Counted from the stretch's first letter, positions 7,527 through 17,930 are shown. The stretch is DNA of 64,000 nt from Chitinophagaceae bacterium (GCA_036262095.1 DATAJQ010000238.1:4304-68303), one strand, 5' to 3'. The notes: a model not told the origin generated them from the letters alone. Translations and numbers: made by a program.

Positions 7527-9479
7527 ATGAAGACACTTCTACCTGCCCTATTTTTAATGGTGCTTTGCTCCATTAATGCTCATACACAGATTGTTACACC
7601 AGTTATCAACGCCGGCTTCGGTGTAGATGGCGAACTCCGTTCCAATTACAAGGGAACGTCCATGTCGCTTAATACGGATGACTGGTTCACAGCCGCCTCA
7701 ACGATGGGTAGTGGGAAATCGGTGATCGATACCACCGGAGCCGCCGCCATCATGGCGCGCTATGCAACAGACATGAATTTCCGCCGCCTGCCCTTCTTCA
7801 GGCCTATGAGGATAGCCCCTTTTACCGTTGTGAACAACAGGGTCTGGATCGATGCAGTGTTCATCCGTGACTATCATGATAGCGATTCTACAGTGTTTGC
7901 TTCAGGATCGAATAAGAATGGCGATAGCCCGGGTTACTGGACCAGCCCACTGGCACAGTCCATCCCCGACAAAAATGATATCCTGGATATGATGGTCCAT
8001 ATCCGCCGGGAAGGGCCGCTGTCTACCGACTCACTCTGGATGTTCGGAGGTGTTTCCATGGACAATAACACGGGTAACCGTTATTTCGATTTTGAAATGT
8101 ATCAGACAGATATCCTTTTTGACCGCAACACGCGGAAATTCTCCGGCTATGGTCCTGATGCAGGACATACCAGTTGGCAATTCGATGCAGCGGGGAATGT
8201 ATTAACAACAGGAGATATTATTTTCAGTGCAGAATTTCAAAACTCTGCGCTTACAATGATCGATGCCCGTGTATGGGTGAACAGGGCCGCTCTTTCAATT
8301 ACACCGGTTGCGTTCGACTGGAACGGCACGTTTGATGGCGCTGCAATGGGCTCGACTTATGGGTATGCCGGCATCCGTCCTAAGCAGGCAGGTACCTATT
8401 TTACAGGGCTTGCGAACAGTGCAGGCGTCTGGGGTGGCCCATTTGGTATCATATTAAGGGATCAATCATTTGTAACTACTTACGCAGCCAATCAATATGT
8501 AGAATTCTCGGTGAACCTGAGCAAGCTGGGCCTTGATGGTTCTGGTATGCTGGGCGGGAACCAATGCGCCATGCCTTTTCGCCGCATCCTGGCCAAAACC
8601 AGGGCGTCCAGCTCCTTCACGTCTGAATTAAAAGATTTTATAGGACCATTTGATTTCTTCCTGGCTTCGCGTGCCGACGTAACTTCACAGACGCCTTTGT
8701 TGTGTGAGGGATCGGTAGCAGAAATATCCGTTACCAACCCTGTTGATGGATCGATCTATGAATGGAGTACCACTAACGGCAACATTGTAACCCCTACCGA
8801 TGCCACTTCAGTATATGTAGACCAGCCTGGTACTTATATTGTGAAGCAAACACTGCATGACGGCTGTGCGCCCTATGCAACCGACACGATCAATATAGTG
8901 CCGATGACAGGTTGTACGGTGCTCGCAGCAAATGAACTTTATGATCTTAAGGGATCACTTACAGGCACAACAGCCTCACTGCACTGGAAGGTCAGGAACA
9001 ATTCTTTTGCACAGCGTTTTGAGATCGAGCGCAGTTCAGATGGTAAGAGTTTTATGGTTGCAGGCCGCATGGATATGGTGCCATCAGCATCCCTCTCAGG
9101 TTCATATTCATTCAATGAAACACTGATCAATAATTCTTCTGCCGCTTATTACCGGATCGTGCTGATAAATAAAGATGGATCGAGGCAGGTAAGCCCCGCT
9201 ATTCAATTGTCTACATCCACCAGCGAACGGTTGATAATATATCCTAATCCGGCAACTGAATGGCTGCAAATGCAGTTGACAGTAGGCAGAACGTCTGCGG
9301 CAAAGATCAGGATCTATACTGCGGATGGCATTTTGGTATATAGCACTCAAACCAACCTGCAAAAAGGATATAACCAGCTCAAATTGCAAGGGCTTCAGGG
9401 CAAACCTTCAGGCACTTACCTGGTGATGGTTCAAACAGACGATGAGGTGTTCAGCAGGAAGTTTGTCCTCCGTCAATAA
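7527..9479 (+). CDS. Secreted protein with a T9SS type A C-terminal sorting domain; the N-terminal domain is of unknown function
   Basis: Signal peptide MKTLLPALFLMVLCSINAHTQ. The C-terminal roughly 80 aa (LIIYPNPATEWLQMQL...GTYLVMVQTDDEVFSRKFVL) match the Por/T9SS CTD pattern. Confidence 0.8.
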   Translation: MKTLLPALFLMVLCSINAHTQIVTPVINAGFGVDGELRSNYKGTSMSLNTDDWFTAASTMGSGKSVIDTTGAAAIMARYATDMNFRRLPFFRPMRIAPFTVVNNRVWIDAVFIRDYHDSDSTVFASGSNKNGDSPGYWTSPLAQSIPDKNDILDMMVHIRREGPLSTDSLWMFGGVSMDNNTGNRYFDFEMYQTDILFDRNTRKFSGYGPDAGHTSWQFDAAGNVLTTGDIIFSAEFQNSALTMIDARVWVNRAALSITPVAFDWNGTFDGAAMGSTYGYAGIRPKQAGTYFTGLANSAGVWGGPFGIILRDQSFVTTYAANQYVEFSVNLSKLGLDGSGMLGGNQCAMPFRRILAKTRASSSFTSELKDFIGPFDFFLASRADVTSQTPLLCEGSVAEISVTNPVDGSIYEWSTTNGNIVTPTDATSVYVDQPGTYIVKQTLHDGCAPYATDTINIVPMTGCTVLAANELYDLKGSLTGTTASLHWKVRNNSFAQRFEIERSSDGKSFMVAGRMDMVPSASLSGSYSFNETLINNSSAAYYRIVLINKDGSRQVSPAIQLSTSTSERLIIYPNPATEWLQMQLTVGRTSAAKIRIYTADGILVYSTQTNLQKGYNQLKLQGLQGKPSGTYLVMVQTDDEVFSRKFVLRQ

Positions 9480-9569: not shown

Positions 9570-9643
9570 GGATCGGTAGTTCAGTTGGTTAGAATGCCGC
9601 CCTGTCACGGCGGAGGTCGCGGGTTCGAGTCCCGTCCGGTCCG
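9570..9643 (+). tRNA. tRNA-Asp (anticodon GTC); CCA is not encoded
   Basis: Cloverleaf folded by hand. Acceptor stem GGATCGG/CCGGTCC with one G-U pair, D-arm TAGTTCAGTTGGTTAGAATG, anticodon stem CCGCC/GGCGG with loop CTGTCAC, T-arm GCGGGTTCGAGTCCCGT, discriminator G. Confidence 0.9.
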
Positions 9644-9651
9644 CAAATTTC

Positions 9652-9682
9652 AAAGACGCTGTTTATCAGCGTCTTTGTTTTT
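9652..9682 (+). terminator. Rho-independent terminator after tRNA-Asp
   Basis: A 10-bp stem aaagacgctg (9652-9661) / cagcgtcttt (9667-9676) with loop tttat, followed by gttttt. Confidence 0.75.
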
Positions 9683-9856: not shown

Positions 9857-10162
9857 TCAATCGACTTCTAATTCTTCAGAGATCTTTTTAAACGCCTCCG
9901 GTTTCTTCGCAAATTCCTTTTTAACCTGCTGCTCAAAACTGCCCAGGTAATTTTCCATTGTTTTCTTGTCCATGTGCCCTAAAACTTCTTGGATAAATTC
10001 GGTACTGGCATCTGAATACAAGAAGCTTCGAAGAAATTCGGGGCTTTTTTGCTTTATAGCCTTTCTCAACACATCATGATGAAAGTTAGTTCGGAAGTTC
10101 CTGTTATCCAACGAATGCTGGAATGGGTTCGGTAGTATTTCCATCCGGCCCACAGGAATCAA
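9857..10162 (-). pseudogene. Probable C-terminal remnant of a tyrosine recombinase/integrase
   Basis: The 101-aa ORF contains FHHDVLRKA...EVLGHMDKKTMENY, which resembles the HxxR...LGH...Y catalytic C-terminus of phage-type integrases. The roughly 250-aa N-terminal part is absent: the ORF begins 15 nt from the stop of the neighbouring regulator. It lies about 210 nt from tRNA-Asp. Confidence 0.4.
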
Positions 10163-10177
10163 TTTTAAGATATTCCC

Positions 10178-10795
10178 TCAATCAATAATTTGCATCTGAA
10201 CCGCCGCCCTTATCAGCGTAGCAGTATTCTTTACATCAAATTTGGTCAGGAGGTTTTTTCGGTGTGTGTCAACGGTCGTAGTTCCTATAAAAAGTTTAGA
10301 TGCAATTTCATTATTGGTGAGCCCATCGGCAATCAATTCAAGTACTTCCTTTTCACGACCGGTTAGTACAATTGGACTGGCTTTTACTTTCTGCAGGGTT
10401 TTACCTGCTTCGAAACTCAGGTAAGTTTTTCCATTGGCTACGGTGATGATGGCTTCCATTAATTCATCCTGTGTAGCGTTCTTTAAAACATATCCTGATG
10501 CGCCATTGTCCATCATTTTCTGAATAAAACTTTGCTGGTTAAATGTGCTGAGTCCAATAATAAAAACGGAAGGATATTTCCCTTTCACTTCTTTACAAAG
10601 TTCGATGCCCGATCTGTCAGGAAGATTTACATCCATCAACAAGACATCGGGCAGGCTATTACGTAAAAATGCAAGACAGGATTCTGCATTCATGGCATGA
10701 CCGGTCCATTCAAGGTTTCTTTCATTATTCAGTAATGATCGTATGCCTTCAATTACCATATAATGGTCGTCAACTATAAAGACTTTTATTGACAT
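10178..10795 (-). CDS. Two-component response regulator, NarL/LuxR family
   Basis: Receiver domain with VLLMDVNLPDRSGIEL. C-terminal LuxR HTH: LTGREKEVLELIADGLTNNEIASKLFIGTTTVDTHRKNL. Its start overlaps the kinase stop by 1 nt (TAATG). Confidence 0.9.
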   Translation of the reverse strand: MSIKVFIVDDHYMVIEGIRSLLNNERNLEWTGHAMNAESCLAFLRNSLPDVLLMDVNLPDRSGIELCKEVKGKYPSVFIIGLSTFNQQSFIQKMMDNGASGYVLKNATQDELMEAIITVANGKTYLSFEAGKTLQKVKASPIVLTGREKEVLELIADGLTNNEIASKLFIGTTTVDTHRKNLLTKFDVKNTATLIRAAVQMQIID

Positions 10796-12747
10796 TATAC
10801 ATTAAATTCTATATGAACAGATGTTCCCTTACCGACTTCTGACCGCACATCGACCTTTCCTTTCAGGTACTCTATACGGCTCTGAATATTATTCCACCCA
10901 ATACCTTTCGCTCCGTGTAAAATTGCTGTATTAAATCCTTTGCCATCATCTTCCACGGTGATCGTAATTGTTTCGTTTGTTTTTGTCACTTGCACAATCG
11001 CTGATTTGGCAGCGGCATGCTTCAATGTATTATTGATCAATTCCTGGACGATCCGGTAAATGGCGATGGCAGTCGTTTGTTCAATAACTATTTTATCTAT
11101 GCCGATAGATTGATAGGTTACCTGCGAAGAGCCGGTGTCATTTATATCATTACAAAAATCCATCAACGCCGTATCGAGTCCAAATTTTACCAGTGCTTCC
11201 GGCATCATATTATGTGCCACACGGCGCATTTCACTGATAGAACTGTCCAGCATGTCCATACTACGTTCAAAATCCTGCTGGTTTTCAGGTGTCATGATAA
11301 GATTTCGCTTCATAGTCAAAAATGAATATTTAATGCCCGACATCATGCCTCCCAGTCCATCATGAAGGTCTTTTGCCAGGCGGGTTCTTTCCCGTTCCTC
11401 ACCTTTTAATACTGCTTCCGCAGCAGTTAGTTGTTTTTCTGTTTCCAACTCATTGATACGCTGCTGCTGCAATTTTTGTTTTTGACGATAATTTCTATAG
11501 AGCAATAATGAGATGACCAGGATCAGCGCAGCCCCGGCGGCAAGAATATAGTTCAAGGTATTCTTCCGTTCGATCTCTGAATGCTGGAGCAATAACTGCG
11601 CATCTTTCTTTGCAGTTTCATATTTTTTCTCCAGTTCATTCGCATACTTTTTTGAGTCCATGCTCACCATGGAATCATTTACCTCTTTGTGTTTTTGAAA
11701 ATACTCGTACGCTTCTTTATATCTCCCGGTAACCGCATATACATCAGAAAGATATTTGTACCCCTGATTCAGTATTCCGAAGTAGTTAATTGTTTCAGCT
11801 TCTTTTATTCCCGACAACAAGTTTTGTTCTGCTTCTTTGTAACGCTTTTGCATAATAGCGATAGCTCCCATTTGCAACTGCGATTCTGCTTTGCCATAGC
11901 TATAGTTGTACATCTTCGAAATATCAAAGGCTTTTTGAAAGAAATAGAATGCAGAATCTGGTTGCGCTAGACTTCTAAAAACCTGTGCAGATACCAGGTA
12001 ATAAGAGAAGAGGATATCGATATTATCTGTATTGTCGGCTTGATTATAATAGAGGTTTGAACTGTCAAGGGCTATTTTCGCAGAACTGTCGCGATGCTGC
12101 ATGCTATAGGCATTTGCCAGGATGAAATATGCCATAAACACATCCTGCCGTGAGCCATCTTTTTTTGCAACAGCTACTGCTTTAAGTGCATATTCTGTTT
12201 GCTTTTCATTTTCACCAATATCTCCAAATACGGTAGAAAGATTGGTGTATTTGCTGACTAATCCTCCCGGTAACTTATACTGTTCCACCAATGCAATACT
12301 TTTCAAATAGTATTCTATCGCCTGCTGAAATTTATTCTGTGCTTTTAAAGAATTTGCTTTGTCGTTATAAGCATTCGCTTCCCATTGTTTCGCCTTGGGA
12401 TGATCTGATTTTTTATAATTCTCGATAGCATGATCAAAACTTAAGATCGCCTGTTCATAATTTGCCGCGCTGTTGAACAAAAACGATTGATTCTGATAGA
12501 TACGTCCCAACTGGTAATACATTTTTTTTTCGCTGGCAAATGCTATGGCCTCGCGATAAGACTGATAGGCTTTCGCAGTATCAACTGCTTCATAATCGAC
12601 AGCCAGCCGCATCATGCTCATGGCCCTGGTGCTATCGGGTATTGATTGTTTTAATTCTTTTGCAATACTGTCAACAAGATGTTGTTGAGCTTCTGCAAAA
12701 CGGAGTAATAGAATAAAAAGCAGACAATAAAATAATTTCCTTCTCAT
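10795..12747 (-). CDS. TPR-repeat sensor histidine kinase (HisKA_3 / HATPase_c)
   Basis: Signal peptide MRRKLFYCLLFILLLRFAEAQQ, using the ATG at 12747 (the track start is 12789). About 380 aa of TPR-like repeats, one TM segment (YILAAGAALILVISLLLY), a coiled coil, an H-box (LAKDLHDGLGG), then VEDDGKGF and GIGWNNIQ. Confidence 0.85.
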   Translation of the reverse strand: MRRKLFYCLLFILLLRFAEAQQHLVDSIAKELKQSIPDSTRAMSMMRLAVDYEAVDTAKAYQSYREAIAFASEKKMYYQLGRIYQNQSFLFNSAANYEQAILSFDHAIENYKKSDHPKAKQWEANAYNDKANSLKAQNKFQQAIEYYLKSIALVEQYKLPGGLVSKYTNLSTVFGDIGENEKQTEYALKAVAVAKKDGSRQDVFMAYFILANAYSMQHRDSSAKIALDSSNLYYNQADNTDNIDILFSYYLVSAQVFRSLAQPDSAFYFFQKAFDISKMYNYSYGKAESQLQMGAIAIMQKRYKEAEQNLLSGIKEAETINYFGILNQGYKYLSDVYAVTGRYKEAYEYFQKHKEVNDSMVSMDSKKYANELEKKYETAKKDAQLLLQHSEIERKNTLNYILAAGAALILVISLLLYRNYRQKQKLQQQRINELETEKQLTAAEAVLKGEERERTRLAKDLHDGLGGMMSGIKYSFLTMKRNLIMTPENQQDFERSMDMLDSSISEMRRVAHNMMPEALVKFGLDTALMDFCNDINDTGSSQVTYQSIGIDKIVIEQTTAIAIYRIVQELINNTLKHAAAKSAIVQVTKTNETITITVEDDGKGFNTAILHGAKGIGWNNIQSRIEYLKGKVDVRSEVGKGTSVHIEFNV

Positions 12748-12826
12748 ATAGGAATGTACTTCTTTGTTTGCCATTTTGCAAAAAAACATCTAAGTATTAG
12801 GGTTATCCATCCCCTTTTTCCATGAT

Positions 12827-12857
12827 TCTCCTGTTTTTCTAAAATCTCCTGTTTTTC
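12827..12857. promoter_or_regulatory. Perfect 13-bp direct repeat (TCTCCTGTTTTTC, two copies, 18-bp period) in the divergent kinase/operon intergenic region
   Basis: The copies are at 12827-12839 and 12845-12857. They lie 54-84 nt upstream of the ATG at 12911 and about 80-110 nt from the kinase ATG at 12747. Confidence 0.6.
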
Positions 12858-12910
12858 AGGGATAGAAAAATGGGATGTGGAGGTGCAATTTTACTCCCAC
12901 AAAGACTTGT

Positions 12911-15184
12911 ATGAAAAAAATTGCTTTCATCGCGATTGCCTTCCTTATTTATAGCGGCAGTTTTGCACAGCCAGGTAAAAAATCTTCGCAAAAAGACAAG
13001 CCTCCGACACAAAAAGAAATGCAGGACATGATGAAGGAAATGCAAAAAGAACTGGATGGAATGAGCCCGGAAGACAAGAAGATGCTGGACAGTATGGGTG
13101 TAAAGTTGCCTTCAATGAATGGCATGCCCAAAGTATCAGATAAGCAATTGGCTGATGCCCGGAAAAATGAAAACCGGGGTGTACCCAAACAGGATGCTAC
13201 CCGTATTGCTTCCGTACCCAAAGCTGTTACAGATTCAAAAATGGAAGCTTATATAGTTGCTATTCAAAAAAAATTAGTAACAACTTTTAAGCCTGCAGTA
13301 ATAACCACTGGCGATAAAATGTATGAATACATACGATCGAATAGTAAGAATACCGATGAAGCAGGCAATATGGCGATCGGACTTTGGTTGGCTGGTCAGC
13401 CTGAGATTGCTTTATATGTGTTGGGAAAATTTTGCATAACGGATGCCGGCAATACTGATAATCTCAATAATTATTCTGCCATGCTTTCAATGCAGGGCGC
13501 ACAGCATCTCGCCATTCCTATTCTCAATAATCTCAATGCAAAGTTTCCAAAGAATAGCACCCTGCTTAATAATCTTGGACAGGCATGGTTTGGGTTGGGA
13601 GAAATTGGCAAAGCTGAAAAGTATTTAGATAGTGCCATCCGGATTTACGCTTACCATCCACAGGCTAATCTCACTAAATCGTTCATCGAAGAAAGTAAGG
13701 GTAATAAACAGGGGGCGATCAATGCAGTCAAGCGCAGTATCGTAAAAGCCTACAGCATAGAGAAAGAGAATCGTCTGAATAAGCTTGGTCATGAACTTGA
13801 GCCTGAAAATGTAAGCTGGGACAGGCCCATGCCGCAGGATCCATTAGGACTCGAAAAATTTAAATGGCCCGGCTATCCAATGAGTGTTGCAGAAAGTGAA
13901 ACGCTGGAAAAGGAGTGGGATGCATTTAATGAAAAATGCCGGGAAAAAATAGATGAACTGAAAATGCAGGAGCAATCCCTTCAAATCCAAGCGGAAGAAT
14001 CAAATGCCGCACGCACAAAATTATTGCTTCAGGCAGGGCAAAAGGGAAGGATCGTTTCTCCAGTGCCACTTCTTGCCTATAAGGCGATTATTAAACTCAA
14101 TAACCTTGTTAATGACAAAGATGGCCATATGGCATTTTCATACCAGAAAAAAACACAGTCTGTATTGGATGCACATACAGAGGCTGCAAAACTGGAGGAA
14201 ATACTTAGCCAGCAGATACAAACGATACAGGAAAATTATAGGGATAAATTCGGAGAAGGAAAGTCGAATCCATTTGATGCCGCCTGCGCTGATGATACAA
14301 AAGCAAAGAATGGCTTTCTCAGTTCATCAAACGCCCTGATACGGGATGCCTTCAATGATTATCTTGGTTTTATGCGGCGCAAGATCACCAATGAAACATA
14401 TTACAATCAATACACCATGTGGCCAGAAAATTTTGAGCTCGCAAAGGTGCGGGCAAAGATCACCTGGCTTTCGCTAATATCAGGTCAGAATCCTAAATTC
14501 AAGGATAAAAGTTCATGGTGCCAGGATCAGACAGATGCAGAAGCAAAACCTTTTAAGCTGGCAAACTTTGATGACATAGCCTGCCAGTATAAAAGCAGTT
14601 TGAATTTAGGCTGTGTAAAAATGGAAACCAATTGCGGCCAAACAATCACTACTTACGGTTGTGGGGATATTACGTTCGCTGAAAGAGAATTAGGACAGAA
14701 TTACGTTGGCGGTACACTAAAACTGTCACATAAAGTAAAAACCGGGATCAATGAGGGACCTTTGTCAGTCACAGGTTATATCAGCACCAATATGACTATC
14801 GAGGTTGATGAAAACAATAATGTAAAAGATTGGAGCGGCAAAATAACTGCCGGTGTAGAAGCTGGAGCAGGAGTAAATACCGGTCCGGTAAAAATAGGTG
14901 CTACTATAGGTGAATCAGTGGAAGTGGAAATAGGCAGCACTGGTATTAGTGATATAAACATTGTATCAACGGGTAAAATAGAGGCAGGTATAGAAGCTCC
15001 CGGATCAGACGGTGATCAAAAGATAGATGCACAGATCAACAAAGGAGTTGGCTATGTAAATAAAGGGATAGGTAAACTCAATACAAGTGTTGAAATAGGT
15101 GTGGAGAGCCGTGCAAGCCTTATCAGTGGGCACGCTGTGGTAAACGGAACAGGTAAACTGGAAGGTATTAGGATCTCAGAATAG
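12911..15184 (+). CDS. Exported 757-aa protein of unknown family: TPR-like region, coiled coil, Cys-rich segment, Gly-rich alternating-polarity C-terminus
   Basis: The signal peptide MKKIAFIAIAFLIYSGSFAQ begins at the ATG at 12911 (the track ORF begins at 12875). TPR-like helices run about NYSAMLSMQGAQHLAIPILNNL...YLDSAIRIYAYHPQAN, followed by a K/E/Q-rich coiled coil. Six Cys occur within about 55 aa. The last roughly 170 aa are G/V/I/E-rich. Confidence 0.7.
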   Translation: MKKIAFIAIAFLIYSGSFAQPGKKSSQKDKPPTQKEMQDMMKEMQKELDGMSPEDKKMLDSMGVKLPSMNGMPKVSDKQLADARKNENRGVPKQDATRIASVPKAVTDSKMEAYIVAIQKKLVTTFKPAVITTGDKMYEYIRSNSKNTDEAGNMAIGLWLAGQPEIALYVLGKFCITDAGNTDNLNNYSAMLSMQGAQHLAIPILNNLNAKFPKNSTLLNNLGQAWFGLGEIGKAEKYLDSAIRIYAYHPQANLTKSFIEESKGNKQGAINAVKRSIVKAYSIEKENRLNKLGHELEPENVSWDRPMPQDPLGLEKFKWPGYPMSVAESETLEKEWDAFNEKCREKIDELKMQEQSLQIQAEESNAARTKLLLQAGQKGRIVSPVPLLAYKAIIKLNNLVNDKDGHMAFSYQKKTQSVLDAHTEAAKLEEILSQQIQTIQENYRDKFGEGKSNPFDAACADDTKAKNGFLSSSNALIRDAFNDYLGFMRRKITNETYYNQYTMWPENFELAKVRAKITWLSLISGQNPKFKDKSSWCQDQTDAEAKPFKLANFDDIACQYKSSLNLGCVKMETNCGQTITTYGCGDITFAERELGQNYVGGTLKLSHKVKTGINEGPLSVTGYISTNMTIEVDENNNVKDWSGKITAGVEAGAGVNTGPVKIGATIGESVEVEIGSTGISDINIVSTGKIEAGIEAPGSDGDQKIDAQINKGVGYVNKGIGKLNTSVEIGVESRASLISGHAVVNGTGKLEGIRISE

Positions 15185-15204
15185 TAAATAAAACATCTGC
15201 ATAT

Positions 15205-16185
15205 ATGAAATACACAATGGCGATTGCTTTTATCCTGTTTTCCATCTTTTCATTTTCACAGGATTGCTCAAAAGAATTATTAGCAAAAAAACCGGGATCA
15301 TGGAAGGCGGGCATGAAGGGCTTTATTCAAAATGTAACTGCTGCAGACCTGGTAAAGGAAAAAGCTGTGTTGGATGGAGTTCATAAAATGGTTTCTGCAA
15401 AGTATCACCCCACGGGATGTGTAGTATCCTATAGTACTGTGTTTGGAAAAAATAAAGTTGCTGCCAGTAACTGGGTCGCAGATCCGTATCACTATGAAAT
15501 GTATATTTTACGATACCTCTGCGACAATAACAACGCCGATAAATCAAAATACTATACAGACATTTCTACACCTACAACAGTCAATATAGCTGCCAACGAA
15601 ATTCTTTCTCTAAACAACCTGTATGCTGGCAATCTTGCTGCCGATGATTTTAGAGGCTATTTGAAATTAAGAACAAAGCCTGTGAAAAAAGATGGCTATT
15701 ATTTTATGGGTGAAGAGGTCATGGGTGACCGGGCCGACAAAATAAAAGAATACCGCTGGCTGATCACTTACAACGATACTCTTCCATTTTACTACGTAAG
15801 CCAAAAGGAATATTTAATGATCCAAAGAAAGAGATTGGAAAAAGATATCCAGGATAGCCCGGGTGATAAAAACTATTTGGGCCAATTCATCAAAAATATC
15901 GATGAGTATCTGAAACGGCCGGAAGAGGAACTTAAACAACCCGCTATCTGTATGTGGAATGAAGAACAGCGGTTTGAGAAATTCGTCAGTGAAGGCACCA
16001 ATGGTTCTTTTATTGCCGTTAAACCAAACCTGGGTTACTATCGCAAGAAACTACCAATGTCCGCCCCGCAATTTTTTACGGTCGTGTACAAAATTGCCCA
16101 TGGCGATCCTGTATTTGAAGAAAATATTGCCAACATACAGAAAGCAGTTGACTTTGCTGCATTGAAAAATATGTTGGGTAAATAA
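15205..16185 (+). CDS. Exported hypothetical protein (326 aa), no recognised family
   Basis: Signal peptide MKYTMAIAFILFSIFSFSQ. The gene starts 20 nt after the upstream gene. I recognise no motif. Confidence 0.65.
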   Translation: MKYTMAIAFILFSIFSFSQDCSKELLAKKPGSWKAGMKGFIQNVTAADLVKEKAVLDGVHKMVSAKYHPTGCVVSYSTVFGKNKVAASNWVADPYHYEMYILRYLCDNNNADKSKYYTDISTPTTVNIAANEILSLNNLYAGNLAADDFRGYLKLRTKPVKKDGYYFMGEEVMGDRADKIKEYRWLITYNDTLPFYYVSQKEYLMIQRKRLEKDIQDSPGDKNYLGQFIKNIDEYLKRPEEELKQPAICMWNEEQRFEKFVSEGTNGSFIAVKPNLGYYRKKLPMSAPQFFTVVYKIAHGDPVFEENIANIQKAVDFAALKNMLGK

Positions 16186-16208
16186 GAAGCTAGTTTAACC
16201 GGTGCAAA

Positions 16209-17573
16209 ATGAAAAAAATAATTCTCTTCTGTTTTTGTTTGTCAGCGATAACATCTATCGCGCAAAAACAAACCTATGACCTGGTCAGTTATCTGCCGCC
16301 CGTAGGCTGGAAAAGGGAGGTGAAAAGCAACATGACGGCCTATACGCTGACAGATAATAAAAAAAACAGTTGGTGCCAGGTCTTCATTGTTAAAAGCACA
16401 GCGAGTAAAGGCAGTGCTGAAGCAGATTTTGAAAGCGAATGGCAGGAACTGGTGGTAAAGAGCTATCATCCTTCCGGAACGCCGCAGTCGGAGGGCGCGA
16501 AAGAACTGGATGGATGGAAAATAAAAATGAGCGTTGGGAAATTTCTTTTTAATAGAAGAGATGCCGTGGTGCTGCTGACCACTGCCAGCGGCTATGATCG
16601 TTGTATGAGCATTGTAGCTATCATGAACAGCGGAGATTATAATGCTGCAGTATCAAAACTTCTGGAATCAGTTGAAATGGTTAAGCCATCAGCAAAGACC
16701 TCGCTCGCACAAACCAATACTATTCCAGTAAGCGATAAAAAATTTGTATTCAGTACAACCAATTTTGATGATGGCTGGAAAAGCACCGTGCAGGAAGATT
16801 GGGTAGAGACAGCAAAAGGAAATATAAGAGTGCTTTTGCATTATCCGAAGGAAGGAACCATATTCGCCGCCGATCCTGCACCATTGATAAACGCAGCATG
16901 GGATATTCTCGTTGCACCGCGGTACAGTAATTTAAAAAACTATAAGACTGCTTATATCATGACCTACGACAGGCCCTACCTGGGGATGGGGTATGCAACT
17001 GAAAACGCTACCGGGAAAAATGTTTTTATCGTTCTCTTCCGCCAAGGAGGCTCCGGTTGGATTGAGTTTATAGCCCCCGACAAAAACAGTTTTATACAGC
17101 AATACAAATTTGATCCTGAAACAATACAGTGGGATAGCAACAGTGACTTGATGATCCCGCTGGCAAATATGATTTCCTATAACAAATTCGCCGTGGCCGC
17201 ATCTGATTTTAAGGGTAAATGGACCAGTGATTTTACCGGCATACAGCAATTGTATAACGTTTACACCGGGCAATATACGGGTATGAATGTAAACCAGTCG
17301 AATGAAGAATTTATTTTCAATACAGGTAATTCCTACAACTGGAAATTGCTTGTTGTGAATGGCATGGTTGGAAATACAAAGTATACAGAAGTAAAATCAG
17401 CCGGGCAATTCACCGTACCAAACAACTGGCAAATTGCCTTTTCAAAGATCGAAACCCGTGCCCGTACGTATCATGCATTCTGGTCCTGTATAAAGGGTGC
17501 AAGGATTTTAAATCTCTTGCCTTCTGAAGCGCCAGGTTCCGGTATTTATACAAAATACGGGCTGGCGAAATAG
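16209..17573 (+). CDS. Exported hypothetical protein (454 aa), no recognised family
   Basis: Signal peptide MKKIILFCFCLSAITSIAQ. The gene starts 23 nt after the upstream gene. I recognise no motif. Confidence 0.65.
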   Translation: MKKIILFCFCLSAITSIAQKQTYDLVSYLPPVGWKREVKSNMTAYTLTDNKKNSWCQVFIVKSTASKGSAEADFESEWQELVVKSYHPSGTPQSEGAKELDGWKIKMSVGKFLFNRRDAVVLLTTASGYDRCMSIVAIMNSGDYNAAVSKLLESVEMVKPSAKTSLAQTNTIPVSDKKFVFSTTNFDDGWKSTVQEDWVETAKGNIRVLLHYPKEGTIFAADPAPLINAAWDILVAPRYSNLKNYKTAYIMTYDRPYLGMGYATENATGKNVFIVLFRQGGSGWIEFIAPDKNSFIQQYKFDPETIQWDSNSDLMIPLANMISYNKFAVAASDFKGKWTSDFTGIQQLYNVYTGQYTGMNVNQSNEEFIFNTGNSYNWKLLVVNGMVGNTKYTEVKSAGQFTVPNNWQIAFSKIETRARTYHAFWSCIKGARILNLLPSEAPGSGIYTKYGLAK

Positions 17574-17630: not shown

Positions 17631-17930
17631 TTAAAGCTTTGAGCAGTTACTACCGAAGATGCGTAATTGGGGAAGGGAGACTTGGGTTGAATATGCAGAA
17701 AATGCTATATTGAGTGCTTCACTGATGTAATACTGATATTTGTTGATAATCGATTTGTTCAGGTCGAATTGTTCTTTGGCGGATCTACCCGGAAGCTGCT
17801 CTTTTAGAAAATCGATTTTCTGATCTTTCTTTTTTTGATAGTACCCTTTATTTTTCAATGTATAATCTAACACATTTAAAAGGGAATCAACATTAGCTTG
17901 TCCCTTTGAATAATGAGAGATGAAAAGCAA
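17631..17930 (-). pseudogene. Probable N-terminal remnant of a DUF6377-type (TPR/HTH) regulator
   Basis: The 99-aa ORF reads LFISHYSKGQANVDSLLNVLDYTLKNKGYYQKKKDQKIDFLKEQL...KYQYY. This matches my memory of the conserved N-terminus of roughly 550-aa DUF6377 regulators, and everything after about residue 85 is missing. Confidence 0.3.

Follow-up and report, generated by a model that had tools for sequence, protein, structure and literature searches.

A kinase-linked operon of three exported proteins in a Chitinophagaceae bacterium and the variable Bacteroidota gene clusters related to it

What does a compact set of exported proteins that fit no recognised family do when its genes stand beside a sensor kinase that appears to be their own? 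The question is raised by a 64,000-nucleotide (nt) stretch of DNA from a Chitinophagaceae bacterium (GCA_036262095.1 DATAJQ010000238.1:4304-68303; hereafter the window), in which three + strand genes, here called gA, gB and gC, occupy positions 12,911 to 17,573 and are divergent from a sensor histidine kinase gene and a response regulator gene on the - strand. Our answer, a tentative one given rather less than an even chance, is that the trio is the minimal form of a variable, Bacteroidota-restricted regulon of exported proteins under a dedicated two-component system, whose products may make up an inducible scaffold or remodelling assembly in the periplasm or at the outer membrane. The first of the genes, gA (12911..15184, 757 amino acids (aa), product MKKIAF...), begins at an ATG internal to an enclosing open reading frame (ORF; 12875..15184), a start at which its product agrees with the N-termini of all homologues, and is followed after 20 nt by gB (15205..16185, 326 aa) and after a further 23 nt by gC (16209..17573, 454 aa). 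As read from the sequence, each product opens with a hydrophobic leader ending in AQ or SQ (gA ..SFAQ/PGKK, gB ..FSFSQ/DCSK, gC ..SIAQ/KQTY). A first-pass annotation of the window had described three tight + strand genes of these lengths and spacings, each with a signal peptide, and both the ORF list and the N-termini bear it out. Weak matches to a terminator-like consensus occur only at ~15627 and 16093, both within gB, and are no more numerous than in shuffled sequence; with the 20 and 23 nt gaps, this lends good support to the prediction that the three genes form one transcript. Dozens of genomes repeat this gene order together with the spacing and the intergenic motif, so the arrangement is well beyond chance.

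The regulatory half can be classified from its domains. The response regulator (10178..10795, - strand, 205 aa) consists of a REC domain (Pfam Response_reg, 1.4e-24) and a GerE/LuxR helix-turn-helix (GerE, 5e-19), and the sensor histidine kinase (10795..12789, - strand, 664 aa) combines tetratricopeptide repeats (TPR; TPR_12, 8e-16) with HisKA_3 (1.4e-10; 42 bits against the 24 needed) and HATPase_c (1e-12). With these kinase domains and an adjoining REC-GerE regulator both present, the pair belongs to the classical NarL/LuxR two-component class. The stop of the kinase gene and the start of the regulator gene share TAATG on direct reading, and the divergent, overlapping TPR-HisKA_3 kinase and NarL/LuxR regulator of the first-pass annotation were thus recovered. 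The kinase probably starts at a Met at 12747 (MRRKLF...), and its predicted topology comprises a signal or anchor segment, an extracytoplasmic TPR region of ~370 aa, one transmembrane helix at about aa 415-435, HisKA_3 and HATPase_c. The layout resembles that of NarL/LuxR-family two-component systems with an extracytoplasmic TPR sensor, such as FimS/FimR of Porphyromonas gingivalis: the kinase likewise has a leader, periplasmic TPR, one transmembrane helix, HisKA_3 and HATPase_c, a REC and GerE regulator is encoded by an overlapping gene, and the pair adjoins, and probably controls, a cluster for exported proteins. By contrast, the presumed target genes in the window are unrelated to type V pilins. 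Moreover, the window kinase scores 65.5 bits against the FimS-type model (NCBIfam NF053520), whose curated cut-off is 600 bits, matching it in the N-terminal TPR part only, and is consequently not a FimS orthologue; its best NCBIfam matches, MctS/MctR, are also far under cut-off. On its domain content, then, nothing sets the regulatory half apart from other NarL/LuxR two-component systems, its TPR sensor being laid out like that of FimS.

How might this pair be connected to gA, gB and gC? The intergenic region that the two divergent gene sets share carries a conserved two-part operator, CCCCTTTTTCCATGATTTT followed 35 bp on by ATCCTGTTTTTCAGGGAT. In the window the first half, S1, reads CCCCTTTTTCCATGATTCT (12811..12829, + strand; family consensus tcTCCCCTTTTTCCATGATTTT, also written TCCCCTTTTTCCATGATTTT for the divergent intergenic regions), and the second, S2, reads CTCCTGTTTTTCAGGGAT (12846..12863, + strand; consensus AAATATCCTGTTTTTcAGGGAT) and is an imperfect inverted repeat, ATCCTG-N5-CAGGGAT. 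An extra copy of TCTCCTGTTTTTC at 12827-12839, between S1 and S2, gives the window three repeats with an 18-bp period. S1 and S2 occur together in 25 of 34 divergent regions between kinase and cluster, with their starts 35 bp apart in 18 of the 25 and 34-36 bp apart in 24. Across 1.35 Mb of related loci, S1 matches number 45 on the operon strand against one on the opposite strand (0.6 in shuffles) and S2 matches 57 against two (1.8 in shuffles). The S2 match is unique within the 64-kb window, where 0.09 would be expected. Most operon-strand S2 sites (45/57) lie no more than 150 nt upstream of a same-strand gene start, the genes behind S2 sites being gA (13), f10 (6), the gC family (5), f19 (4) and f25 (3), where f numbers denote families of accessory genes; the presence of S2 before internal genes of larger clusters points to a regulon rather than a single promoter. 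The distance from the end of S2 to the gA ATG is 47 nt in the window, as is usual among relatives, and a TTTTAC/TTTG-type element lies ~25-30 nt past S2 in most loci, which would place S2 near -45 of a Bacteroidota-type promoter, a position fitting an activator. We therefore find good support for the proposal that the regulator acts on the operon through S1/S2, a putative operator at the expected position, and the earlier suggestion of a signal-controlled module is strengthened by this conserved link between regulator and operon. Since the kinase/regulator operon uses the same intergenic region, it may be autoregulated. We found no earlier description of the operator in the literature.

An S1-like sequence also occurs within the regulator gene itself in several related loci (L004:5301, L007:5287, L013:3197, L028:4228, L041:5552, L098:10902 and L137:9277), antisense and ~300 nt from the start of the coding sequence, at a point encoding approximately KIMEKG. 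The window regulator has QKMMDNG there and no internal S1-like copy. Such copies could be a coincidence of codons or an internal regulatory site.

Whether the five genes travel together was asked from both sides. A gB alignment searched against one genome per species gave 80 loci, of which 78 entered the gene-order counts and 52 are at least 18 kb long; these loci were analysed with simple ORF calls and BLAST/HMM clustering, and many are metagenome bins whose taxonomy is uncertain. Most of the 80 species genomes are Chitinophagaceae, the rest being Emticicia and Mariniflexile or metagenome-assembled genomes (MAGs) labelled Flavobacteriaceae, Prolixibacteraceae, Lentimicrobiaceae and Chryseolinea; homologues of gA, gB and gC that carry an organism label come mainly from Chitinophagaceae-type bacteria. 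Among the 52 long loci, gA is present in 41 (directly upstream of gB in 37), the gC family in 35, the kinase/regulator pair in 27, where it lies divergently beside the cluster, and all of these in 22, while gB stands alone in six. The co-occurrence implied by the first-pass annotation is thereby upheld. In the reciprocal survey, a kinase alignment against metagenome contigs yielded 44 loci with at least 6 kb upstream, of which 36 have a regulator of at least 55% identity, 28 the operator and 27 divergent genes of the gA, gB or gC families (gA in 22, gC in 19 and a close gB in 10, plus divergent gB homologues). Regulator orthologues of 63-77% identity adjoin the kinase in 31 of the 78 gB-anchored loci and in 36 of the 44 kinase-anchored ones, against 26-47% identity to the window regulator for unrelated LuxR regulators of the same loci; for orthologues beside the cluster in the gB-anchored loci taken alone, the two ranges are 63-76% and 26-45%. 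Under the same regulator there are also clusters lacking a close gB, so the kinase/regulator/operator unit is not exclusive to the trio. The self-contained module first proposed is supported, with refinements: the fixed unit is the gA-gB pair, gC is one of a variable family of accessory proteins whose genes often lie elsewhere in the cluster, and the window holds the minimal form of a variable regulon of up to ~12 exported proteins. Within one group of Chitinophagaceae, the cluster as a whole sits at a fixed place in the chromosome (L002, L006, L010, L037, L042, L046, L061 and L065; metagenome loci L097, L099, L107 and L109), with two to ~12 genes between flanks that comprise, on one side, a DUF1343-like gene (f12), an FKBP-type isomerase (f13) and at times peptidase T (f26) and, where the contig reaches, fmt (f14), a LysM protein (f15) and an RsmB-like methyltransferase (f16) on the other.

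Within the cluster, gA and gB are closely coupled. In 56 of 78 loci the gene directly upstream of gB is a gA relative, the gap having a median of 16 nt (59 pairs), and the two are naturally fused in L056 (972 aa), L060 (987 aa) and P0361 (984 aa), ten fusion-type proteins of 936-1037 aa appearing in a search of representative proteins. In L056 and L060 a full gB domain comes first (profile E ~1e-163), followed by a gA-like body; P0361 has gB in residues 1-325, and its residues 389-963 align to gA 104-713 (E 2e-35), so that precisely the gA leader and Met-rich segment are missing. More distant clusters have gA followed by a divergent gB homologue of 400-446 aa (hhalign probability 99.2%, E 3e-19, 324 columns), and duplications come as gA-gB pairs (L054, L062 and L078). 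This pattern gives good support to complex formation between the two proteins, as judged from gene order and fusion. In these loci two pairs lie in tandem (at ~3.5-14.3 kb), one with a gA of 678-745 aa and a gB of 366-380 aa that is ~30-37% identical to window gB, the other with a gA of 848-914 aa and a gB of 324-335 aa; this suggests cognate pairing.

What gB itself might be is indicated by its conservation and predicted fold. It comprises a signal peptide, a mature N-terminus beginning DC and a compact alpha/beta domain, with Cys 21, 72, 106 and 249 conserved in the core family, and it remains 49-81% identical across gB-anchored loci labelled as different Bacteroidota orders, several of these labels being MAG assignments. 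A homologue search returned 679 relatives, all labelled 'hypothetical' or 'TPR', and a gB profile run against 1.84 billion representative proteins just 227; there were no matches in Pfam, NCBIfam, PADLOC or PDB sequence and profile searches. The AlphaFold2 model has a mean predicted local distance difference test score (pLDDT) of 88.6 and a predicted template modelling score (pTM) of 0.85 on a shallow alignment (83 sequences, identity at least 66%), and its best PDB match by Foldseek (E 0.095, probability 0.04, TM no higher than 0.15) leaves gB without a recognisable solved relative. The absence of a family for any of the trio, already supposed in the first-pass annotation, therefore holds across Pfam, NCBIfam, PADLOC, PHROGs and PDB sequence searches, made with single sequences and with family profiles: no confident profile match places the proteins in known, unrelated families, and the gB model has no PDB match. 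Only G71, N131, A247 and P288 of the mature domain are conserved across gB, its divergent B2 group and the N-terminal domain of the accessory protein f5, which favours a structural or binding domain over an enzyme. An enzymatic role for gB was considered unlikely, as its conserved polar residues disappear once divergent homologues are added.

In gA, by contrast with this compact partner, successive regions differ in character: a signal peptide, a Met-rich segment (~30-75), TPR-like repeats (96-291), long helices (326-524), a Cys-rich segment (537-585) and a Gly-rich amphipathic beta-hairpin tail (560-757). This agrees with the TPR-like helices, long coiled coil, six-Cys segment and Gly-rich beta tail discerned earlier. 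The AlphaFold2 model (pLDDT 79.4, pTM 0.53; above 90 for residues 100-530, 55-79 for the tail) was built on a 72-sequence alignment, and at this pTM the arrangement of the domains is uncertain. No TPR profile reaches its gathering score on gA, the best being TPR_19 at 19.9 bits against 25 (sub-threshold, aa 140-280); in the model, residues 96-291 fold as a superhelix of helix-turn-helix repeats (pLDDT ~90) that Foldseek matches to MamA, a consensus TPR and the OGT TPR (probability 1.0, E 3e-5 to 4e-4, rmsd ~2-3 A, ~146 columns). TPR proteins are the only ones among the matches listed for the whole model against the PDB and BFVD. Residues 326-524 form four long helices, the cysteines are at 459/537/558/569/576/585, and the tail consists of strands and hairpins of 15-20 residues in which small hydrophobic residues alternate with polar ones or Gly. 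The Met-rich segment is helical and of low confidence in the model yet highly conserved (consensus approximately PPTQKEM..MMKEMQK.MD.MSPEDKKMMDSMG). More than 1000 homologues were found, none named beyond 'TPR' or 'hypothetical'. All 55 gB-adjacent copies share the first 300 aa, the remainder being of three types (42, 11 and 2 members), and all types retain 8-12 Met in ~45 residues in MxxM/MxxxM patterns. A paralogous relationship between the gA TPR and the sensor domain of the kinase was rejected (BLASTP E 1.2). At its end the window gene reads ...TCA GAA TAG TAA (15179-15187), and close relatives (758 aa) end in ...EW, as does about half of the family in W, from which it seems that window gA and its 97%-identical relative P0001 have lost a terminal Trp through a TGG-to-TAG change.

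The third protein, gC, is on sequence comparison a member of a modular accessory family, with a signal peptide, an N-domain (~20-165) and a C-region (~180-454). Its 1889 homologues are all unnamed, and the sole Pfam signal of the family is a sub-threshold match to NTF2_YvbJ in 22 of 46 members. Elsewhere the N-domain occurs alone (153-171 aa) or with different C-termini, often upstream of gA, and relatives of 620-655 aa have an additional middle domain of ~170 aa. Larger clusters add up to ~10 further exported proteins between the operator and the housekeeping flanks. The commonest is f5 (~620 aa), with a gB-like N-terminal domain (probability 96.3%, E 2e-9) and an unassigned C-terminal region of ~230 aa that has no Pfam match; other proteins with the gB domain carry a Fib_succ_major C-terminus (2e-38 and 2e-41). 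Also present are PD40 beta-propellers, OmpA-domain proteins (628 aa), an M48 peptidase lipoprotein (1e-35), DUF4920 and CARDB proteins, RCC1 proteins with a tail for secretion by the type IX system (T9SS), an astacin-like protease and tail-fibre-like proteins with a Peptidase_S74 domain; Por_Secre_tail is found in family f28, and nine accessory families of no assigned kind have no NCBIfam name. In two species (L013:5558-7297 and L052) the first gene after the operator encodes a 580-aa exported protein whose residues 152-353 match PDB 6nal, 'thiol-activated cytolysin' (E 1e-4), indicating a homologue of CDC-like pore-formers under the same operator. CDC-like toxins are antibacterial two-component pore-formers of Bacteroidota (PMC11169675). 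At the cluster end of ten loci (L041:18506-19018 and nine others) stands an Hcp-like protein of 171 aa (PF05638, 8e-10) with a signal peptide and no other type VI genes nearby, which is unusual for a tube protein belonging to a type VI secretion system (T6SS). A T6SS reading of the module was rejected, as the Hcp-like protein is absent from the window and no other T6SS genes were seen.

Taken as an inducible envelope assembly, the module might work as follows. The TPR domain of the kinase would detect something outside the cytoplasm and lead to phosphorylation of the NarL/LuxR-type regulator, which would then bind the composite S1/S2 site upstream of the Bacteroidota-style promoter element and activate the single gA-gB-gC transcript. 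The signal peptides of gA, gB and gC are of type I, and the proteins carry neither a lipobox nor a C-terminal domain for the T9SS (Pfam finds no Por_Secre_tail in any of them), which makes the periplasm or the outer membrane their most likely site of action, a location that we regard as moderately supported. There gA and gB would form an obligate complex, with gA as an elongated scaffold, built of TPR and long helices, that might associate with a membrane or oligomerise through its Gly-rich amphipathic beta tail, and gB as a non-catalytic, disulfide-stabilised partner domain docking on gA, possibly at the N-terminal Met-rich segment, the very part that the covalent gB-gA fusions lack. Proteins of the gC type would be interchangeable accessory binding modules. 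The periplasmic flavour of the accessory genes (OmpA, PD40, M48 lipoprotein and the signal-peptide Hcp-like protein) is in keeping with such an assembly. Several observations weigh against it. No homology connects gA, gB or gC with an envelope function, and the beta tail of gA is modelled with moderate confidence only (pLDDT 55-79), Foldseek having been run on full-length gA alone. The kinase, regulator and operator also lead clusters without a close gB, many of which have a divergent gB homologue. T9SS cargo, the CDC-like homologue, the astacin-like protease and tail-fibre-like proteins among the accessory genes would fit an outward role too, and a type I signal peptide without a T9SS domain is compatible with release, for example in vesicles.

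The main rival to the envelope-scaffold reading, in our estimate unlikely, takes up this outward role and makes gA-gB a bipartite, membrane-attacking pore-forming weapon against other microbes, in which the tail would insert, the TPR, helices and gB would keep it soluble or target it, gC and f5 would confer specificity and the kinase would be the switch. Strands in which small hydrophobic residues alternate with polar ones or Gly, as they do in the gA tail, resemble the stems of beta-pore-formers, and three types of C-terminus behind a common 300-aa N-terminus, a CDC-like gene directly after the operator in L013 and L052 (6nal, E 1e-4) and T9SS cargo, astacin-like and tail-fibre-like proteins in related clusters would all suit a weapon. 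Yet gA matches no pore-former family in Pfam or the PDB, gB is conserved (49-81%) in a way that a specificity or immunity partner is not, no immunity-like gene accompanies the trio, neither T9SS domain nor lipobox is present for export past the periplasm, and the CDC-like gene occurs in only two of 80 loci. The known two-component pore-formers of Bacteroidota (CDC-like; MACPF-type BSAPs) also have adjacent genes for Sec-exported proteins, and gA has Gly-rich amphipathic hairpins, but neither in sequence nor in any reported fold do gA, gB and gC match the CDC, MACPF or aerolysin families, an immunity lipoprotein is absent, and the conservation of gB far exceeds what is usual for toxin partners. 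Across the beta-pore-former families searched (aerolysin/ETX-MTX2, leukocidin, CDC/CDC-like and MACPF), no match to gA, gB or gC was obtained in Pfam at E<=1 or in PDB sequence and profile searches. Polymorphic toxin/immunity pairs are a poor likeness as well, immunity genes being usually non-exported and co-varying, whereas gB has a signal peptide and stays 49-81% identical.

Somewhat less probable again is that the module is an inducible ligand-binding or adhesive set at the surface or in the periplasm, serving polymer capture or attachment, with the gB domain as constant anchor and the variable domains as binders. The fusion of the gB domain to Fib_succ_major and to the ~230-aa f5-type C-terminal region speaks for this, as do the PD40, RCC1, CARDB and other putative binding domains in which the accessory genes are rich (Wzt_C only sub-threshold) and the lack of conserved catalytic residues in the gB superfamily. 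It would leave the large helical and beta parts of gA unexplained, however, and we saw no transporter, SusC/D pair, glycoside hydrolase or pilin beside the core and no sign of surface exposure.

The Met-rich segment invites a further explanation, that the module is a periplasmic defence against chemical stress (copper, silver, hypochlorite or other oxidants) in which this segment binds metal or is sacrificed. In other periplasmic proteins, motifs of the MxxM/MxxxM type serve in Cu(I) binding or oxidant scavenging, the segment is retained in all gA types and DUF4920 proteins occur in some clusters. We nevertheless judge it improbable: none of 159 loci has a copper oxidase, efflux pump, methionine sulfoxide reductase or metallochaperone family, and the segment makes up less than 10% of gA and is dispensable in the gB-gA fusions.

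It is very improbable that gA is a TPR-plus-beta-barrel outer-membrane exporter of a secreted polymer, of the PgaA/BcsC/PelB kind. An N-terminal periplasmic TPR block followed by a beta-rich C-terminal domain is indeed what gA has in common with those porins, but its beta region is short (just ~200 aa), its C-termini (..EW or ..FKK in the family, ..ISE in the window) lack the alternation of hydrophobic residues that marks an outer-membrane beta-signal, neither Pfam nor PDB sequences connect it to the PgaA, BcsC or PelB families and no linked synthase or glycosyltransferase gene was found in the 159 loci. An exopolysaccharide exporter was rejected for this absence of partner genes from the loci examined. 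Hardly credible at all is the suggestion that the trio are unrelated exported proteins adjacent by chance, with the kinase and regulator controlling other genes, which could appeal to gC being often apart from gB or absent and to gB standing alone in 6/52 long loci, but which is at odds with gA-gB adjacency in 56 loci, the fusions, the paired duplications and an operator common to cluster genes.

The envelope-scaffold reading finds its nearest analogues in the periplasmic TPR scaffolds NlpI, LpoA, CpoB/YbgF and BepA and in PorE of the T9SS (domain list from PMC5053529, PMC12773672). Like them, gA is an exported TPR protein, and the related clusters hold OmpA-like, PD40 beta-propeller and M48 peptidase types that such scaffolds contain or work with. 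The similarity does not go past the generic TPR fold, and gA adds a Met-rich segment, a long-helix region of ~200 residues, a six-Cys segment, a beta-hairpin tail and an obligate gB partner. Among anti-phage defence systems (PADLOC-DB) there was no match to gA, gB or gC, and PHROGs gave only weak matches to families of unknown function; relatives of the three were absent from viral contigs, and a phage origin was rejected. The literature search likewise yielded no description of the cluster or of the gB family. Since the effector half fits none of the families and systems compared, and given this lack of a published description, we provisionally rate the module as lying outside the known kinds of system. 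Put more boldly, and with low confidence, gA-gB might represent a new class of two-part, kinase-switched, membrane-active machine of Bacteroidota, in which gA would deliver a beta-hairpin module into the cell's own outer membrane or that of a competitor, gB would be its obligate partner and paralogues with gB or gC domains would serve as exchangeable adaptors.

To our knowledge, the envelope biology of the Bacteroidota comes mostly from a few gut and oral species, and the Chitinophagaceae of soil and freshwater are almost untouched. Against this background, three 'hypothetical proteins' become a defined system with a sensor and regulator, an explicit operator, a pair supported by fusions and a catalogue of accessories. 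The operator sequence enables prediction of the regulon in any genome and the construction of reporter strains with which to look for the inducing signal. The gB domain may merit a Pfam family of its own and, with a confident predicted fold and no solved relative, is a good target for structure determination. Were gA-gB indeed a membrane-active or envelope-remodelling pair, it would represent a new mechanism in bacterial antagonism or outer-membrane maintenance.

The surroundings of the module in the window bear on how it came to be there. Its flanking genes are shared with none of the 80 related loci, and GC content is 0.40 over 10-18 kb against 0.44-0.48 in the flanks. On the regulator side, a gene at 7527-9479 (+ strand) encodes a 650-aa T9SS cargo protein (Por_Secre_tail 1.4e-9, Ig_7), which shows that the host has a T9SS, whose sorting signal gA, gB and gC lack. 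It is followed by a tRNA-Asp gene (9570-9644, + strand) with a terminator-like hairpin (9651-9677) and by a 101-aa remnant of an integrase C-terminus (9857-10162, - strand; Phage_integrase, E 0.022) that adjoins the regulator gene. These features suggest that the five genes came in together on an island targeted to the tRNA, which later decayed; a search for att-type repeats of the tRNA-Asp 3' end gave none of at least 12 nt. In loci L019 and L001 the regulator side carries a tRNA-Lys. Beyond gC, and before the gene that follows, lies a 99-aa ORF (17631-17930, - strand) with no Pfam match, which looks like the N-terminal part of some larger protein of regulator type and may mark the other edge of the inserted module as a second gene remnant.

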